Part shown: one piece after another, positions 20,453-41,330 of the stretch
Layout of the letters: every line of letters begins with the position of its first letter
How positions within the stretch are numbered: position 1 is the stretch's first letter
Sequence record: NC_041936.1
Strand: one strand, 5' to 3'
DNA: 64,000 bases
Origin: Escherichia phage ECD7
Position numbers and translations under genes: made by a program
Notes under the pieces: generated by a model
Told to the model about the DNA's origin: nothing
Database searches by the model: none
Seen by the model: the letters and a program-made list of their open reading frames with translations, nothing else

Positions 20453-22504
20453 TTACATTTTAAATTTATCTGGCATTGCGTCTACAGATACCAGATCAGC
20501 GATAAGCTGACGTAGAGTTGCCTTATCTGCTTTCTTACGTTCGGTTTTAGCTTCGCTAATGAAGCTGGAGAAAGACAGGTCAGAAGCAGGTTTAACAACA
20601 CCCTCACGGATGAATGCATCACCGTCCGCGATCATCTCACCAGATTCTTGTAATGCTGCCAGTTCACTTTTGTTCATAATATGTGCCTCAATGTAATAAG
20701 TTTCTTGTGAATCCGTCGATGCCGTAGCACGAGTTACCGTATCAAAGGATAACACAACACCGCGAGGAAGTAAAATCTCGCATTCTTTGTAAGCAAATGC
20801 TTTGTTACCTACTGGCAATACAGGGATGTTTTCCGCGCCAGCGATAGAGAAAGCAACATTAGCGCCACCTTCACCGCGAGAGCCAGCCATAGAATCAACA
20901 CCAGCAACGGCACTAGCCACGTTTGCATTCCAGCCACCAAAAATATTAGGCGCAAGGGAAGTGCTCACATAGTTTTTAAAGTAAAACGCTTTTTGCTTAC
21001 GTGCAGTTTCCCACATTTGCGACCGGAAGTCCATACCACGATACAGAATAGTACCCGGATCAAGTTTAACACCATAGTTAGAGAAGGCATTATCCAGTGC
21101 ATCGCACATCTTGACCAATTCTTCTGGATCTGCGATTCCCTCAAACTCTTCCAGCTTGCGATCAGTTAGGAAGTTGTTCATATTGATGTATGCTGCATCG
21201 GCATATTCGCTCAACACAAAACCTTCCGCGCCCGGCAGATCAAGATCAATATCTGCCATCATTTCACCCATGTTGCTAGCAATTGCTTCAAACATACCGG
21301 ACGCAACATTACGAAGGGCATCGGTTTTAATCTGGGTGATATGACTACGCAGCATTTCAGCTTTTACATCTGCTGGCATAGACTGGTCTACTCGATCCAT
21401 TGCCAGGGCGGTGATCTTGTTTTCGAATACTTCCTCGCTCATGATTTCTTTTAAGCGTTTGATTGAGGCTGCGATAACTTCCGCAGACAACGGATCATAT
21501 TGATCCTGAACTTTTACCAGTTCGCTTACTGCGTATTTTGCATCGGCTTCGCTTTCAAAAATAGTACGCATGAAACCATAGCGAGTGATAATATCACTTG
21601 TCCAGTCATTCAGAGAACGGGCGGTTGAACGTTCTAAGGCTTGACGGTCAATCAGAGTATTAAACTGTTTCTTAGGTTCGGCTTCGGTGATATCTTCTTC
21701 CGGTTTAAGATTAATTTTTTCTGGATGATTCACGTAGTCGCTGTTATAGGTCGCTTGAGTTTTCAGCATTTCTTCTTTAGTCAAACGAGATTTAGCCGCT
21801 ACGCGTTGTTCTGCTTCCGCGTTTCGTTCTTCTTCTGACACAAGACTAGCCGCATACGCCTCATCTTTAGTCAGAGATTCACCAGTAGCCTTAGATACCC
21901 AGCGATCACCTAAATCACTTTCTACTTTAGTGAACAAGGATTCATCAAGTTTAATCCCTTTAATCTTATCAATCGCCATCCCGCGACGTTTGACAACAAC
22001 TAAAGCGATCTTTTTGCTGGTCATTACTTCCTGCTGGAATACTTCAAACTTCGGTGTACGACGCACCAAACGCTCTATAACGCGCTTAACCAGTTCGGTC
22101 TTACCTTTCATGCGGGATACGTTAAAACGGAACATAACAGCGTCTAATTGCGCTTTACGGGCTGTTTCCATAACCACATCAAAAGCACTTGCCATAACTG
22201 CAATCGGGTTATCACCTAGACCATTTTTAAGCTGTACAATACGACCGCTTTTGTTCATTTCACACAGTACAACGTGTGCGGTCTTGTCACCCATACGAAT
22301 AATTTTAGGTGTTTTGTTGGTGAAGTTGCAAAGACGGACAATCACATCTTTATCGCGTGTCTGTACTGCAAAAAGCTGTTTAGGATTCTGCTTAGGCTTT
22401 AAGCATTGTACCGGAGCAATACTGCCAAAGTTTTCTTCCTCTTCCGTCAACAGCCATTTCTCGAAAGATTCAATCATTAGATCGTCGATTTCTAAGTTAA
22501 ACAT
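20453..22504 (-). CDS. alt: Alt ADP-ribosyltransferase (packaged internal head protein)
   Basis: 683 aa (T4 Alt is 682); C-terminal ART motifs; position after gene 54 as in T4. Confidence 0.85.
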   Translation of the reverse strand: MFNLEIDDLMIESFEKWLLTEEEENFGSIAPVQCLKPKQNPKQLFAVQTRDKDVIVRLCNFTNKTPKIIRMGDKTAHVVLCEMNKSGRIVQLKNGLGDNPIAVMASAFDVVMETARKAQLDAVMFRFNVSRMKGKTELVKRVIERLVRRTPKFEVFQQEVMTSKKIALVVVKRRGMAIDKIKGIKLDESLFTKVESDLGDRWVSKATGESLTKDEAYAASLVSEEERNAEAEQRVAAKSRLTKEEMLKTQATYNSDYVNHPEKINLKPEEDITEAEPKKQFNTLIDRQALERSTARSLNDWTSDIITRYGFMRTIFESEADAKYAVSELVKVQDQYDPLSAEVIAASIKRLKEIMSEEVFENKITALAMDRVDQSMPADVKAEMLRSHITQIKTDALRNVASGMFEAIASNMGEMMADIDLDLPGAEGFVLSEYADAAYINMNNFLTDRKLEEFEGIADPEELVKMCDALDNAFSNYGVKLDPGTILYRGMDFRSQMWETARKQKAFYFKNYVSTSLAPNIFGGWNANVASAVAGVDSMAGSRGEGGANVAFSIAGAENIPVLPVGNKAFAYKECEILLPRGVVLSFDTVTRATASTDSQETYYIEAHIMNKSELAALQESGEMIADGDAFIREGVVKPASDLSFSSFISEAKTERKKADKATLRQLIADLVSVDAMPDKFKM

Positions 22505-22545
22505 TTTATATCCTCTAGTTGATAACCTATAAACCTATATTTATG

Positions 22546-22570
22546 AAAAAGGGGCTTAACGCCCCCTTTT
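22546..22570 (-). terminator. symmetric GC hairpin terminator
   Basis: AAAAGGGGC-TTAA-CGCCCCCTTTT. Confidence 0.55.
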
Positions 22571-22571
22571 A

Positions 22572-22784
22572 TTATAATGCACCATCAAGCAATTGCTCTA
22601 AGGTGTATCCTGAATAGTCTTTTTCAATCAGGATATATTTTCCTACTCGTTTAATCCAACCGCGCATTTCAACGTATTCTGCGTAGTTGATGGTGCGAGT
22701 TGTTCCATCTTCCAGTAATGCAGTACCGATTTCGTTGATGCGGTCATAAGTTACGTCGGTAATGATGATTTCGATGTTAGCCAT
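22572..22784 (-). CDS. small hypothetical protein (70 aa, MANIEIII...)
   Basis: start set at the internal Met downstream of its own promoter; the track ORF runs into the promoter. Confidence 0.4.
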   Translation of the reverse strand: MANIEIIITDVTYDRINEIGTALLEDGTTRTINYAEYVEMRGWIKRVGKYILIEKDYSGYTLEQLLDGAL

Positions 22785-22820
22785 TTGATACTCATTAGTA
22801 GTTCGTTTCGGTATGTGTGC

Positions 22821-22849
22821 ATTATAGGGGATCACCGATCCCTTGTCAA
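22821..22849 (-). promoter_or_regulatory. sigma70-like early promoter with palindromic spacer (PeSL-type)
   Basis: minus strand TTGACA - 17 nt GGGGATC..GATCCCC spacer - TATAAT. Confidence 0.6.
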
Positions 22850-22857
22850 CAACTTTT

Positions 22858-23376
22858 TTAGTTATTTTTTAATTGCTCATCTTGCAATAGGGCAATCACA
22901 TGCTGGCGATGTTCTTCCGATTGAGGCACACCGAAAAAGTTTGTTTTGTAGAAATACTCTAATCGGTCTTCTCGTGTGCTCTCTTCCATCATGATCGCGG
23001 GTAGTCCGAGATTTCGGAAACGTCGCTTTTCTGCTGGCGTAAAATCACTGTAATACAGCATATAATCATCATTACCAGCAATGCTAAACTCATCCTTCAT
23101 GAAAGAGAATATTGCGTTTAAACGCTGTTTACCGTCCACGATTTCGATTTCATAGCGAGAGCCATCATCAATCTTAGCCATTGCGATAGCACCAACCGGA
23201 AAATCATTAATCAGGTTTTCGATAAACATACGTTTGTTTTCTGTGTCCCATACCAAAGGACGCTGATAATCTGGGTTCATGTTGATATAGCCATCTTCTA
23301 ACCATGCTTCGTAAACAGAGATGACAAAGTTTTTAGTATTGGTATAGTAACGGCGTTTAGGCGTTAAACGGTTCAT
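22858..23376 (-). CDS. DUF262 (ParB-like / GmrSD N-terminal domain) protein
   Basis: DYQRPLVW and IVDGKQRL motifs typical of DUF262; start at internal Met with AGGAG RBS. Confidence 0.55.
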   Translation of the reverse strand: MNRLTPKRRYYTNTKNFVISVYEAWLEDGYINMNPDYQRPLVWDTENKRMFIENLINDFPVGAIAMAKIDDGSRYEIEIVDGKQRLNAIFSFMKDEFSIAGNDDYMLYYSDFTPAEKRRFRNLGLPAIMMEESTREDRLEYFYKTNFFGVPQSEEHRQHVIALLQDEQLKNN

Positions 23377-23377
23377 A

Positions 23378-23707
23378 TTATAGTCTCCTGAATGGATCAT
23401 CACGTAAATCAATATCTTTTAAGAACTCATCCCATGAATGGCGGATATTGTTCTTAATTCTCCAGATAAGCGCAGGGATTGAACGCTCTCCCATCTGGAA
23501 GTAAGGATCATATGATCCGTATGCCCAATATGCTACTACAATTCCACAATCAGCGCAATAGTATTCTATTTCACTTGCTGGCGACCAAAGTCCATCAATA
23601 TGATCAGTGATCTTGCTTTCGATGTTATGGCTATGACAATCAGGGCAACGGATGCAATGACCTTGTTTATCGTAATTTGACGTTAGAGAATACTTAAACA
23701 ATCTCAT
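23378..23707 (-). CDS. zinc-ribbon protein (109 aa)
   Basis: CxxC...CxxC (CIRCPDC ... CADCG); TAATG coupling to the methyltransferase-like gene. Confidence 0.5.
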   Translation of the reverse strand: MRLFKYSLTSNYDKQGHCIRCPDCHSHNIESKITDHIDGLWSPASEIEYYCADCGIVVAYWAYGSYDPYFQMGERSIPALIWRIKNNIRHSWDEFLKDIDLRDDPFRRL

Positions 23708-24423
23708 TATAGATCCTTATTGGCTTCAAATACTGCCTTTGCGAATCCTCGCGGCGTAAGTGACCTGATAGTCTTTGTTCTGGTTCCTTTCCCGCCTAGC
23801 TTAGAATGCTGTTTGCTGTACCCTTTATTAATCTGCAACGGTTTCTTTTCTGGCATTATAAAGCCTTGTCCGGTCCATAAGCAAGTCTTTTTCGGGTACA
23901 TATCACGGGCGGCAATATACTCAGGAAACGTAGGATGCTTATCATCTTCCGGCAAATAACCGCCATATTCCCACGGATGGAACATGTAATCAGGCTTACG
24001 CCACATACTAGAGATAACGCTTACAGGATTCTCTATCATATAGGGAACTCCTAGCCATTCACCCAAATAAGCGGTTATTTTAGCTGCCCGTACATCATGA
24101 ACTTGAATCAATGGTCCTTGTTCTCGTTTCTTTCGTTCAAAGTGTGCAGCGCCACTAACAGCTAAATTGGTGCACGGTGGGAATGCAAATATAATATCCG
24201 GTTTCCCCCATTCAAGGTCCATTGCTCTTTCCAGCCAGTTCAAATCAATCCAGGTGTTTACATAGGTAATGTTTGGATGTTCAAATCTGGTATTATACTT
24301 TTTGTATGTACCGTGGTCGGCGTCATCCGCATTAAAGCAGACTACCTTATGACCTGCTTTAGCCCATTCTAGCCCCATTATCCCCGATCCGTCAAAGTTG
24401 CAGAATATTAATTTTTGTTTCAT
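23707..24423 (-). CDS. cytosine-5 methyltransferase-like protein (238 aa)
   Basis: N-terminal FxGxG (FCNFDGSGIMG), catalytic-type FPPC, and ENP motif in the order of C5-MTase motifs I, IV, VI; short for a DNA MTase. Confidence 0.45.
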   Translation of the reverse strand: MKQKLIFCNFDGSGIMGLEWAKAGHKVVCFNADDADHGTYKKYNTRFEHPNITYVNTWIDLNWLERAMDLEWGKPDIIFAFPPCTNLAVSGAAHFERKKREQGPLIQVHDVRAAKITAYLGEWLGVPYMIENPVSVISSMWRKPDYMFHPWEYGGYLPEDDKHPTFPEYIAARDMYPKKTCLWTGQGFIMPEKKPLQINKGYSKQHSKLGGKGTRTKTIRSLTPRGFAKAVFEANKDL

Positions 24424-24665
24424 ATACGACCCTTTAACCCAGCACAGATTTTAGTCGGTTCTTTACCGTGCCACATTAAGTAAAGTCCGTTAGTGCGGCC
24501 TTGTTTTGTATATGATTCTTTTCTGATCTTCTTATAGTATCGTGCTTCCTCAGCCGATTGTTTAGAATGCCGATCATAAAGGAAGAGGAACAAAGGCCAA
24601 CCATTAGCGGCCTTAATGCAGTTATTAAGAAATTCCTTATTGCGTTTAATTAATTTTCTTTTCAC
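24420..24665 (-). CDS. small basic hypothetical protein (81 aa)
   Basis: ATGA-coupled within the operon. Confidence 0.45.
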   Translation of the reverse strand: MKRKLIKRNKEFLNNCIKAANGWPLFLFLYDRHSKQSAEEARYYKKIRKESYTKQGRTNGLYLMWHGKEPTKICAGLKGRI

Positions 24666-24913
24666 GCTGCCCCCATTGGTTTGATAGTAACAGAATCTAA
24701 AAGACCTTTGTTAGCCAGTTCGCGGCAAGTTTTCAGATCCGTAACTTCCCAGCCAGCCGCAATCAGGTTATCAATGAGGCTGTTAGCAACTTCCTCGCTC
24801 ATGAAAGAGCACTGTTTGCCGATGGTGTAGCGCACACGCTGTAATTTCAGTTTACGGAAGCCTTTAACGTTCAGGTCTTTAGCGATTTTCTTTGCGGTTT
24901 CGATGTTAGCCAT
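24662..24913 (-). CDS. small hypothetical protein (83 aa)
   Basis: first ORF behind the promoter at 24954-24982. Confidence 0.5.
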   Translation of the reverse strand: MANIETAKKIAKDLNVKGFRKLKLQRVRYTIGKQCSFMSEEVANSLIDNLIAAGWEVTDLKTCRELANKGLLDSVTIKPMGAA

Positions 24914-24953
24914 TGTTTGATTCTCCTAAGTGGTATCTCGTCTTGATGGTTGT

Positions 24954-24982
24954 ATTGTAGGGGAGTTATCCTCCCCTGTCAA
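24954..24982 (-). promoter_or_regulatory. sigma70-like early promoter with palindromic spacer
   Basis: minus TTGACA - 17 nt (GGGGAGGATAACTCCCC) - TACAAT. Confidence 0.55.
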
Positions 24983-24996
24983 CACTTTTTATAAAA

Positions 24997-25164
24997 TTAT
25001 TTGTTAATTTCTGGTGCGTTGCTCGGATAGTAACCTTCTTTAACGCCCAGGTATTTCGCAACCATCCCTACAATCTTCTGTGCTACTACAATGTCAAATT
25101 TCAGATAATCTTCGCCGTGGGTTTCAATGATATATGCTTCACATGCTGCTTTAGTCTCGAACAT
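24997..25164 (-). CDS. small protein (55 aa), paralog of 28255-28422
   Basis: MFETKAACEAYIIETHGEDYLKFDIVVAQKI...; 50/55 residues identical to the second copy. Confidence 0.5.
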   Translation of the reverse strand: MFETKAACEAYIIETHGEDYLKFDIVVAQKIVGMVAKYLGVKEGYYPSNAPEINK

Positions 25165-25197
25165 TTTGATTCTCCTATTTCGTTTCGGTATGGGTGT

Positions 25198-25227
25198 ATT
25201 ATAGGGGATCTCCCGATCCCCGTCAAC
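25198..25227 (-). promoter_or_regulatory. sigma70-like early promoter with palindromic spacer
   Basis: minus TTGACG - GGGATCGGGAGATCCCC - TATAAT. Confidence 0.6.
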
Positions 25228-25240
25228 AACTTTTTTAAAA

Positions 25241-25522
25241 TTATTCGTGATTAGTTTCGATGTTGTGCATTTTGCACCAGTTCAGCCAATCGCCCAGATC
25301 TTGATAGTTGATGCTTTTATCTGCTGCCATCGTTTTTGTCTTGATACCCATATGTGCGTTATGAGTAAGCATTTTTACAGTGAACTCAATTTTATCGCCT
25401 TTAGCTTTAACATCAACCAGTTTGGTCCACTGGCTACCAGCGCCGCGAATGTTCATGCCAACGATGTTTCCGATGTATGCTTCTTTGTTTTTCAGGATTT
25501 CGGTTGCTTTGATGAATTTCAT
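25241..25522 (-). CDS. small hypothetical protein (93 aa)
   Basis: ORF with its own promoter. Confidence 0.5.
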   Translation of the reverse strand: MKFIKATEILKNKEAYIGNIVGMNIRGAGSQWTKLVDVKAKGDKIEFTVKMLTHNAHMGIKTKTMAADKSINYQDLGDWLNWCKMHNIETNHE

Positions 25523-28455: not shown

Positions 28456-28484
28456 ATTATAGGGGATCACCGATCCCCTGTCAA
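28456..28484 (-). promoter_or_regulatory. sigma70-like early promoter with palindromic spacer
   Basis: minus TTGACA - GGGGATCGGTGATCCCC - TATAAT. Confidence 0.6.
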
Positions 28485-41270: not shown

Positions 41271-41302
41271 AATAAAATCCTCACTTGTTTTTGATGGTTG
41301 TA

Positions 41303-41330
41303 TTATAGCGGGGATTTCTCCCCGCGTCAA
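41303..41330 (-). promoter_or_regulatory. sigma70-like promoter with palindromic spacer
   Basis: minus TTGACG - GCGGGGAGAAATCCCCGC - TATAAT. Confidence 0.55.

Follow-up and report, generated by a model that had tools for sequence, protein, structure and literature searches.

The early region of Escherichia phage ECD7 (NC_041936.1) raises the question of whether a predicted cytosine methyltransferase and a DUF262 protein encoded in the same small operon belong to one functional system. The operon occupies positions 22,858 to 24,913, minus strand, of the 64,000-nucleotide stretch that was analysed (hereafter the window), and comprises five genes, here called g83, g81, mt238, zn109 and mini-DUF262. 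A first-pass annotation, made from the letters alone, had read it as a DNA-modification or anti-restriction module, or as a phage-borne exclusion system, of a composition not described before. We found that the methyltransferase-DUF262 pairing is a lineage-specific mosaic and not a new system. The unit is probably a set of accessory genes that are gained and lost singly between early promoters of the PeSL (promoter-early stem-loop) type, in which mt238 would be an anti-restriction enzyme and mini-DUF262 a separate module. mt238 is the only component of the unit with a predictable activity. The genes and their flanking promoters are, in the order of transcription:

24954..24982, minus strand: early σ70-type promoter of the PeSL type, with TTGACA, the 17-nt spacer GGGGAGGATAACTCCCC and TACAAT; drives the five-gene unit.
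24662..24913, minus strand: g83, 83 amino acids (aa), phrog_14908; open reading frame (ORF) with a PHROG match.
24420..24665, minus strand: g81, an 81-aa basic protein with a GTG start, phrog_7065; ORF with a PHROG match.
23707..24423, minus strand: mt238, a predicted 238-aa compact orphan C5-cytosine DNA methyltransferase of the phage 'Dcm' family; phrog_757, motifs and AlphaFold2 (AF2) model.
23378..23707, minus strand: zn109, a 109-aa Cys-rich zinc-ribbon protein, phrog_2993; CxxCxxC...CxxC.
22858..23376, minus strand: mini-DUF262, 172 aa from ATG, a stand-alone ParB/Srx-fold GmrSD_N module; PF03235 and AF2 model.
22821..22849, minus strand: next promoter of the PeSL type, with TTGACA, the 17-nt spacer AGGGATCGGTGATCCCC and TATAAT; starts 9 nt past the DUF262 stop.

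The first line of evidence concerns inheritance. Window positions 22500-25300 align from end to end, at 97-98% identity, with over 50 Krischvirus genomes, those of RB49, Phi1, JSE, GEC-3S, TB34 and JEP8 among them. More than 50 GenBank records of Krischvirus carry annotations for the same five genes, in some of them as 'DNA methyltransferase' and 'DUF262 domain protein'. Copies of both zn109 and DUF262 that are at least 95% identical occur in 55 records, all of the RB49 type. Since RB49-type genomes are 97-98% identical overall, joint inheritance within this group amounts to one observation. Elsewhere, we tested 80 IMG/VR loci with mt238 homologues (49-64% identity), and homologues of g83, g81, zn109 or DUF262 were found within 5 kb of the methyltransferase gene at none of them (phmmer, E ≤ 1e-3). 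The search from the DUF262 side gave a similar picture, with mt238 and zn109 present together at only one of 54 IMG/VR mini-DUF262 loci, the Krischvirus contig itself. The genes next to mini-DUF262 form 67 unrelated clusters, none of which is dominant, and its neighbours are likewise unrelated across the approximately 30 other phage lineages in which it occurs; for example, it lies directly upstream of goF in Klebsiella/Enterobacter T4-like phages and among Ead/Ea22 genes in P22-like prophages.

Outside the RB49 group, the nearest relative is L148 (ENA ERZ27254724 k141_110561), a metagenomic contig of 2.6 kb that encodes g83, g81, the zinc ribbon, a 46-aa ORF and DUF262 at positions 20-1600. 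The shared genes are in the same order as in the window and their products are 74% (g83), 65% (g81), 67% (zn109) and 56% (DUF262) identical to those of the phage. This contig has no methyltransferase, and the stop of g81 overlaps the start of the zinc-ribbon gene. Its DUF262 gene is followed by a PeSL promoter with the same palindromic spacer, which drives an LPD25-domain gene. In phage MIZ5 (L147, OR167181.1), classed as a Krischvirus, nothing matches the five-gene block; the sole similarity is a 47-nt stretch of PeSL promoter elsewhere in the genome, beside an unrelated gene cluster near dmd. We conclude that g83, g81, zn109 and DUF262 are the older part of the block and mt238 an optional insert, and that mini-DUF262 is an independently mobile accessory gene and not a required partner of the methyltransferase. 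The conservation of the five-gene order, which the first-pass annotation had put forward as a check, holds within the nearly clonal RB49 group and not outside it, and JSE lacks g81. The suggestion of an undescribed system of this composition is not supported, since the methyltransferase family occurs on its own in 626 phage records from many genera (Tls, Dhillonvirus, rV5-like, SSE121-like and Jersey-like phages), the neighbours of mini-DUF262 are unrelated and L148 does without the methyltransferase.

The sequence of mt238 places it, by prediction, among the C5-cytosine methyltransferases of the phage 'Dcm' family, which is already characterised. phrog_757 ('DNA methyltransferase') matches the protein from end to end (E 8e-91), and the family contains 7322 clusters at 90% identity, nearly all of them with members of 225-260 aa. 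The FxGxG, FPPC and ENP motifs that had been pointed out as being of the C5-methyltransferase type are conserved. Motif I reads F10-D-G12-S13-G14, of which F10, G12 and G14 are nearly invariant in a 38-member alignment, with F.GSG found in 117 of 120 homologues. In motif IV (F81-P82-P83-C84), P82, P83 and C84 are invariant among the 38 homologues and the motif is present in 119 of the 120, while E131-N132-P133 of motif VI is invariant in the 38. R142, K178 and the C-terminal I219-R-S-L-T-P-R225 are also invariant or nearly so in this alignment; overall, the motifs hold in 112-119 of 120 homologues. The predicted catalytic Cys is C84. The target-recognition region is small, with approximately 70 residues from motif VIII to the C-terminal motif. 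The AF2 model (predicted local distance difference test score, pLDDT, 88.7; predicted template-modelling score, pTM, 0.88) is DNMT3-like: catalytic-domain chains of DNMT3A/DNMT3B took PDB ranks 1-9 in Foldseek (E 1.5e-7 to 5e-6, template-modelling (TM) scores of 0.41-0.53), and the list also held the prophage CP-933R DNA methyltransferase 3g7u and DNMT2. A sequence search of the PDB with mt238 gave zero matches.

An experimentally studied relative can be found in the Drexlerviridae. Retron Ec86 is triggered by dcm of the Drexlerviridae phage K42, a gene of 711 bp; its product was modelled on DNMT3A, is inactivated by C82A, E128A, K175A and K176A, and, when expressed alone in E. coli, yields 5-methylcytosine (5mC) at the CCWGG site of multicopy single-stranded DNA (msDNA) as measured by liquid chromatography-mass spectrometry (10.1101/2023.08.16.553469). 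The product of the 711-bp dcm gene of Warwickvirus tonn is 54% identical to mt238 over its full length (E 2e-90), and its C82, E128, K175 and K176 align with C84, E131, K178 and K179 of mt238. The residue numbering and the 711-bp length of the tonn gene are those reported for K42 Dcm, and in the BASEL phage FritzSarasin a 98%-identical gene has the annotation 'Dcm-like C5 cytosine methyltransferase'. Because of the 54% identity and the matching catalytic positions, mt238 appears to belong, as a new member, to the compact orphan C5-methyltransferases of phages, a family that has been characterised by experiment. The segment before LGGK, a putative target-recognition site, reads GYSKQHSK in mt238, and approximately 100 of 120 homologues share this GYS-type; the characterised type has DNPGWAKT there, and 18 of the 120 are of this NPGW-type. 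This difference from the CCWGG-specific relative suggests that the target of mt238 may be other than CCWGG. Across the whole window, CCWGG (33 sites observed, 76.7 expected; observed/expected ratio 0.43) and GGCC (ratio 0.35) are both markedly under-represented, and GATC (ratio 1.04) is not depleted. Assignment of a target from these site frequencies was dropped, as the depletion of CCWGG and GGCC fits restriction avoidance and decay by 5mC deamination alike. The GenBank annotations of the JSE and W115 methyltransferases are 15 codons too short, which cuts off motif I.

The 172-aa protein is a true DUF262 protein with a ParB/Srx fold and belongs to a clade of small, nuclease-less proteins, as had been claimed of it in the form of a DUF262 module without its nuclease half. 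PF03235 (GmrSD_N/DUF262) matches it with 73 bits (cut-off 33.2, E 4.8e-20), and its best PADLOC matches are NsnA (E 7e-21) and PD-T4-2_A (E 4.5e-12). DYQRPLVW and DGKQRL are both present, and in the alignment Y37-Q38-R39 and D81-G82-K83-Q84-R85-L86, which hold the QR and DGKQR nucleotide-pocket motifs, are invariant; the C-terminal NFxGVPQSEEH is conserved in close relatives. A TTG codon upstream of the ATG would extend the protein to 184 aa. The best of five AF2 models reached a pLDDT of 87.3 and the other four were poor (51-60) because the alignment held 8 sequences. Foldseek with the best model returned PadC, Noc, CTP/CDP-bound ParB (ParB-CDP/CTPγS) and BrxU (TM 0.42-0.50), with sulfiredoxin ranked lower, and a PDB sequence search gave chance matches only. 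The protein is probably a nucleotide-binding switch.

A profile search of 1.8 billion representative proteins returned 17,106 relatives of mini-DUF262, of which the best 150 were inspected. These are 128-368 aa long, mostly approximately 160-190 or 250-295 aa, and the domain reaches their C-terminus; none of the 150 has a nuclease domain, and a Pfam scan of the N-terminal extensions of the 250-295-aa relatives found zero domains. Neither DUF1524, HNH nor another nuclease was found in mini-DUF262 or in the seven neighbouring products scanned (Pfam, NCBIfam and PADLOC). Since its nearest relatives are short and consist of the domain only, mini-DUF262 is not a truncated GmrSD but a member of a separate clade. 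The family comprises hundreds of clusters at 50% identity and is present in approximately 300 sequenced phage records, where it occurs as a solitary 'moron' in both virulent and temperate phages. As a candidate for a split GmrS/GmrD pair, we considered the gene of approximately 319 aa located 3' of mini-DUF262 in Klebsiella T4-like phages; it was rejected, as it is Pfam-negative and annotated goF, and it is also unrelated to the HD-domain neighbour of mini-DUF262 in another phage locus (L139).

The remaining three genes offer fewer clues. The identification of zn109 as a C4 zinc-ribbon protein is borne out by five Cys residues (C18, C21, C24, C51 and C54) that are invariant between its two known lineages, Krischvirus and L148; its Pfam zinc-ribbon matches are all sub-threshold. 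A homologue search with zn109 returned its own cluster only, and a search of metagenome and viral contigs with the zinc-ribbon alignment found only Krischvirus copies at least 99% identical, with L148 as the sole intermediate relative. More remote homologues, of 27-43% identity, occur as single small genes in Nonagvirus JenK1, Proteus/Klebsiella siphoviruses and Felix O1-type phages, and no methyltransferase or DUF262 gene lies nearby in JenK1, the Felix O1-type phages and the others. For g83 and g81, Pfam, PHROG, NCBIfam and PADLOC scans gave nothing informative, the NCBIfam scan being of no use for any of the products; g83 has a weak PADLOC match to the C-terminal part of RT_UG35 (E 2.3e-5). 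g81 is dispensable, since it is precisely absent from JSE, where the methyltransferase in consequence starts at the GTG that begins g81 elsewhere and overlaps the g83 stop. The start of g81, GTGAAAAGAAAATTAAT, resembles that of the methyltransferase gene, ATGAAACAAAAATTAAT, and a deletion between them gives the JSE arrangement (L143 3029-3075 compared with window 24420-24665).

The unit is an early, σ70-driven transcription unit in the hyperplastic region of Krischvirus (RB49/Phi1/JSE-like) phages. The five packed minus-strand genes and the promoter at 24954-24982 were all found where the first-pass annotation had put them, and its view of the setting as a phage early region was right. From g83 to mini-DUF262, the junctions are two 4-nt overlaps, a 1-nt overlap and a 1-nt spacer. 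The promoter at 22849-22821 drives a separate small gene that is followed by a terminator at 22551-22565; because this perfect promoter comes right after the DUF262 stop, the five genes form one unit. Promoters are annotated at the equivalent sites in the GenBank record of GEC-3S. A simple scan of the 3-kb region found 8 promoter-like sites against 8.2 expected in shuffled sequence, i.e., no enrichment; the flanking promoters are 11/12 (24982-24954) and 12/12 (22849-22821) matches to the consensus and have a distinctive palindromic spacer. Immediately downstream of the unit is a gene for a 683-aa Alt-like ADP-ribosyltransferase (20453-22504; ADPrib_exo_Tox at residues 425-610, E 2e-9). Between the small gene and the Alt-like gene, positions 22551-22565 form a terminator-like hairpin (GGGGC-loop-GCCCC), which the scan called on the plus strand; its stem is palindromic and the T-run follows the stem on the minus strand.

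There are five σ70 consensus promoters on the minus strand of the window (22821-22849, 24954-24982, 25198-25226, 28456-28484 and 41302-41330), and in each the 17-nt spacer is itself a G/C-rich palindrome, e.g., GGGGATCGGTGATCCCC. This is also true of the spacer GGGGAGGATAACTCCCC of the promoter at 24982-24954, which, like that at 22849-22821, has 6-bp palindromic arms within the spacer. In RB49 and phi1, PeSLs combine strong early promoters with stem-loops, are clustered in hyperplastic regions and mediate insertion, deletion and replacement of ORFans (PMC2839356). The five promoters of the window, including the two that flank the unit, match this description. Because the unit sits in a PeSL-shuffled region, co-transcription is weak evidence for a shared function of its genes. 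The opening genes of the unit (24913-24896) and of the stretch behind the next PeSL promoter (22784-22767, minus strand) both start with ATGGCTAACATCGAAA (MANIE...), and this shared 5' end could act as a recombination site between cassettes.

Krischvirus phages are 'pseudo-T-even' coliphages whose DNA contains ordinary cytosine (PMC6563267; PMC4041780), and RB49 DNA is cut by HpaII and NheI (PMC4041780). In TB34, all five genes are intact (L155, 39385-42121), and its DNA contains canonical nucleosides only, as determined by high-performance liquid chromatography and mass spectrometry (PMC13390438). An intact cassette together with canonical cytosines means that the cassette is not a cause of bulk modification. 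By our estimate, the share of cytosines methylated by a site-specific enzyme would be well under 1%, which is compatible with the TB34 and RB49 data. For the Krischvirus SAP, which is 99.96% identical to TB34, 5-hydroxymethyldeoxycytidine (5-hmdC) and gentiobiosyl-mdC have been reported, with no known pathway genes in Krischvirus (PMC13390438). SAP carries the cassette, and its DUF262 protein is 98.8% identical. In its modification profile, SAP clusters with seven Tequatrovirus members of that collection of phages (PMC13390438), and a mixed stock may be the reason.

Taken together, these observations point to accessory genes brought together singly as the probable origin of the unit. mt238 would be made soon after infection and, using S-adenosylmethionine and the nucleophile Cys84, would methylate replicating phage DNA at a short target sequence, and host DNA as a side effect; this could shield the otherwise unmodified cytosine DNA of the phage from methylation-sensitive restriction. 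A site-specific anti-restriction role is the most likely one for mt238, and mini-DUF262 would be a solitary accessory module that is co-expressed with the methyltransferase and otherwise unrelated to it. Of the modification or anti-restriction module first proposed, anti-restriction remains plausible for the methyltransferase; functional pairing with DUF262 is not supported by the 80 IMG/VR loci or by L148. Several points weigh against this explanation. PF00145 matches mt238 with 15.2 bits, below the Pfam cut-off of 22, and over residues 10-100 only (for a few close homologues, a PF00145 match has been precomputed); the grounds for linking K42 Dcm to tonn-type enzymes are gene length, the numbering of residues and the BASEL annotation; and methylation by mt238 in this phage is something that we infer. 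In addition, g83, g81, zn109 and DUF262 are syntenic in two lineages at 56-74% identity despite the shuffling of the region, so they could be a functional group, which may relate to the methyltransferase. DNA methyltransferases of other families also lie at most two genes from mini-DUF262 in 4-5 of approximately 30 lineages. L086, L138 and L095 are three unrelated phage contigs with such an arrangement: in L086 (4953-6507), an SPPY-motif enzyme with a weak, sub-threshold N6_N4 match overlaps the DUF262 gene; in L138 (5001-7850), an N6_N4 enzyme is near mini-DUF262 and a ParB_N-N6_N4 fusion is three genes away, in the outer shell; and in L095 (3911-7251), a D12 Dam-type enzyme is within two genes and a C5 enzyme at ±3-7. 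A DUF4942 methyltransferase lies within two genes in L109, and L094 is a weak case. Phage T-dioxygenases require a ParB-fold activator on double-stranded DNA (PMC13229309), and phages often encode ParB-CTPase folds as fusions with N6_N4 methyltransferases (PMC12704722).

These last findings would favour a single modification module of mt238, zn109 and DUF262, in which the ParB-fold DUF262 protein, maybe together with the zinc ribbon, loads on DNA in a nucleotide-dependent manner and recruits or activates the methyltransferase; the translational coupling of the genes in one operon and the short stretch between motif VIII and the C-terminal motif of mt238 fit as well. We consider such a module unlikely: homologues of DUF262 and zn109 were found at none of the 80 other loci carrying this methyltransferase family, the family member K42 Dcm methylates on its own, and L148 keeps zn109 and DUF262 without the methyltransferase. 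Methyltransferases are absent near mini-DUF262 in most lineages, and they account for 4-5 of 67 neighbour clusters at positions ±1-2 as against at least 2 of 150 farther out in these loci (±3-7), a marginal enrichment. Given its conservation in L148, it is conceivable, if rather doubtful, that g83, g81, the zinc ribbon and mini-DUF262 are a functional unit in which mini-DUF262 is a nucleotide-gated DNA switch, and that this switch would modulate whichever methyltransferase the phage carries or neutralise host DUF262 defences. Alternatively, mini-DUF262, maybe with the zinc ribbon, might be an anti-defence mimic of host DUF262 N-domains (GmrSD/BrxU, SspE, NsnA and PD-T4-2) that forms dead hetero-oligomers with the host proteins or competes for their ligand. 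An early accessory region beside alt is typical of host-takeover and counter-defence genes, the best PADLOC matches are the defence components noted above, a nuclease-less GmrS1 pairs with GmrSD2 (PMC12373910), and the clade is widespread as a solitary 'moron'. This mimicry is nevertheless improbable, as an interaction with any host enzyme has neither experimental nor comparative support, GmrSD-type enzymes should pose no threat to unmodified Krischvirus DNA, and the invariant QR/DGKQR pocket suggests a working nucleotide site over a passive decoy. That DUF262 is part of a type IV-like exclusion system against co-infecting phages with modified DNA is very unlikely. DUF262 (PF03235) is the sensor/NTPase half of GmrSD enzymes, and tblastn among T4-like phages led to Krischvirus, RB43-type (Pseudotevenvirus) and Klebsiella/Enterobacter phages; Tequatrovirus and Mosigvirus were not among the matches listed, in which the 53 Escherichia records are close in number to the 55 near-identical Krischvirus matches. 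Against exclusion stand the lack of a nuclease in the protein and in the scanned neighbours, the 150 nearest of 17,106 relatives, which all end with the DUF262 domain, and partner genes that vary by lineage. Finally, mt238 might catalyse the first step of a post-replicative cytosine hypermodification (5mC to 5hmC to glycosyl-5hmC) that would explain SAP, which has the modified bases and the cassette without known pathway genes (PMC13390438); phage pathways of a C5-methyltransferase and TET do exist. We rejected mt238 as the source of the SAP modification, which is extremely unlikely: the cassette is equally intact in TB34, whose cytosines are canonical, glucosyltransferase genes were not detected in Krischvirus genomes according to the authors of the SAP study (PMC13390438), a site-specific enzyme could not replace all cytosines, and the grouping of SAP with Tequatrovirus phages makes other explanations likelier.

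RB49-type phages, the standard cytosine-unmodified T4-like phages, nevertheless carry a C5 methyltransferase that is probably active. This bears on how the sensitivity of Krischvirus phages to restriction, BREX and retron Eco1-type defences is read. Krischvirus GenBank records other than that of RB49 list E. coli B as host. Retron Ec86 is native to E. coli B more generally. It has been described as native to BL21(DE3) (10.1101/2023.08.16.553469), and RB49 was propagated on E. coli B (PMC4041780). The practical value of the finding is modest. The widespread clade of nuclease-less mini-DUF262 proteins in phages is a more interesting question than the methyltransferase, and if the g83-g81-zinc ribbon-DUF262 block were functional, it would represent a new class of small phage ParB-fold regulators. 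As a general caution, operon sharing in PeSL-shuffled regions should be taken as weak evidence for shared function.

The unit can be compared with several known systems. As in the PeSL cassettes of RB49 and phi1, variable ORFs lie between strong σ70 promoters that contain a G/C-rich palindrome, and gene-level insertions and deletions distinguish close relatives; the unit differs in comprising five genes and not a single ORFan, and its internal gains and losses (the methyltransferase and g81) lie at overlapping stop/start junctions and not at PeSLs. mini-DUF262 shares the N-terminal DUF262/ParB-Srx domain and the QR and DGxQR motifs with type IV enzymes of the GmrSD family (GmrSD, BrxU and SspE), but it consists of the domain alone, with no DUF1524/HNH half in the protein or the operon. 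NsnA (Menshen) and DndB are likewise nuclease-less DUF262 proteins; unlike mini-DUF262, NsnA has 385 aa and an extra C-terminal DNA-binding domain (PMC12065111), and both act in multi-gene systems of the host, which are not present here. ParB-fold partners, such as those of the 5mYOX T-dioxygenases and the ParB_N-N6_N4 fusions, also place a ParB/Srx module beside a phage DNA base-modifying enzyme. Their domain is PF02195 ParB_N and not DUF262, and their link to the enzyme is conserved or takes the form of a fusion, whereas mt238 and DUF262 are associated only in a single, nearly clonal group of phages and not in L148.

For mt238, the catalytic domains of DNMT3A and DNMT3B (e.g., PDB 4u7t and 6kdt) share the class I methyltransferase fold and a very small target-recognition region; they are 13-17% identical to it at TM scores of 0.45-0.53, and mt238 has neither their regulatory domains nor a DNMT3L-type partner. 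The Drexlerviridae 'Dcm' enzymes (the 711-bp K42/KarlJaspers type, with dcm in Tls, swan01 and FritzSarasin) differ from mt238 in the segment before LGGK, and mt238 sits in a five-gene operon of a T4-like phage. Both are nonetheless phrog_757 proteins of 236-238 aa with the same catalytic Cys, Glu and Lys-Lys, the tonn copy being 54% identical to mt238 over its full length, and both are orphan enzymes of an early or accessory region whose closest solved fold is DNMT3A.

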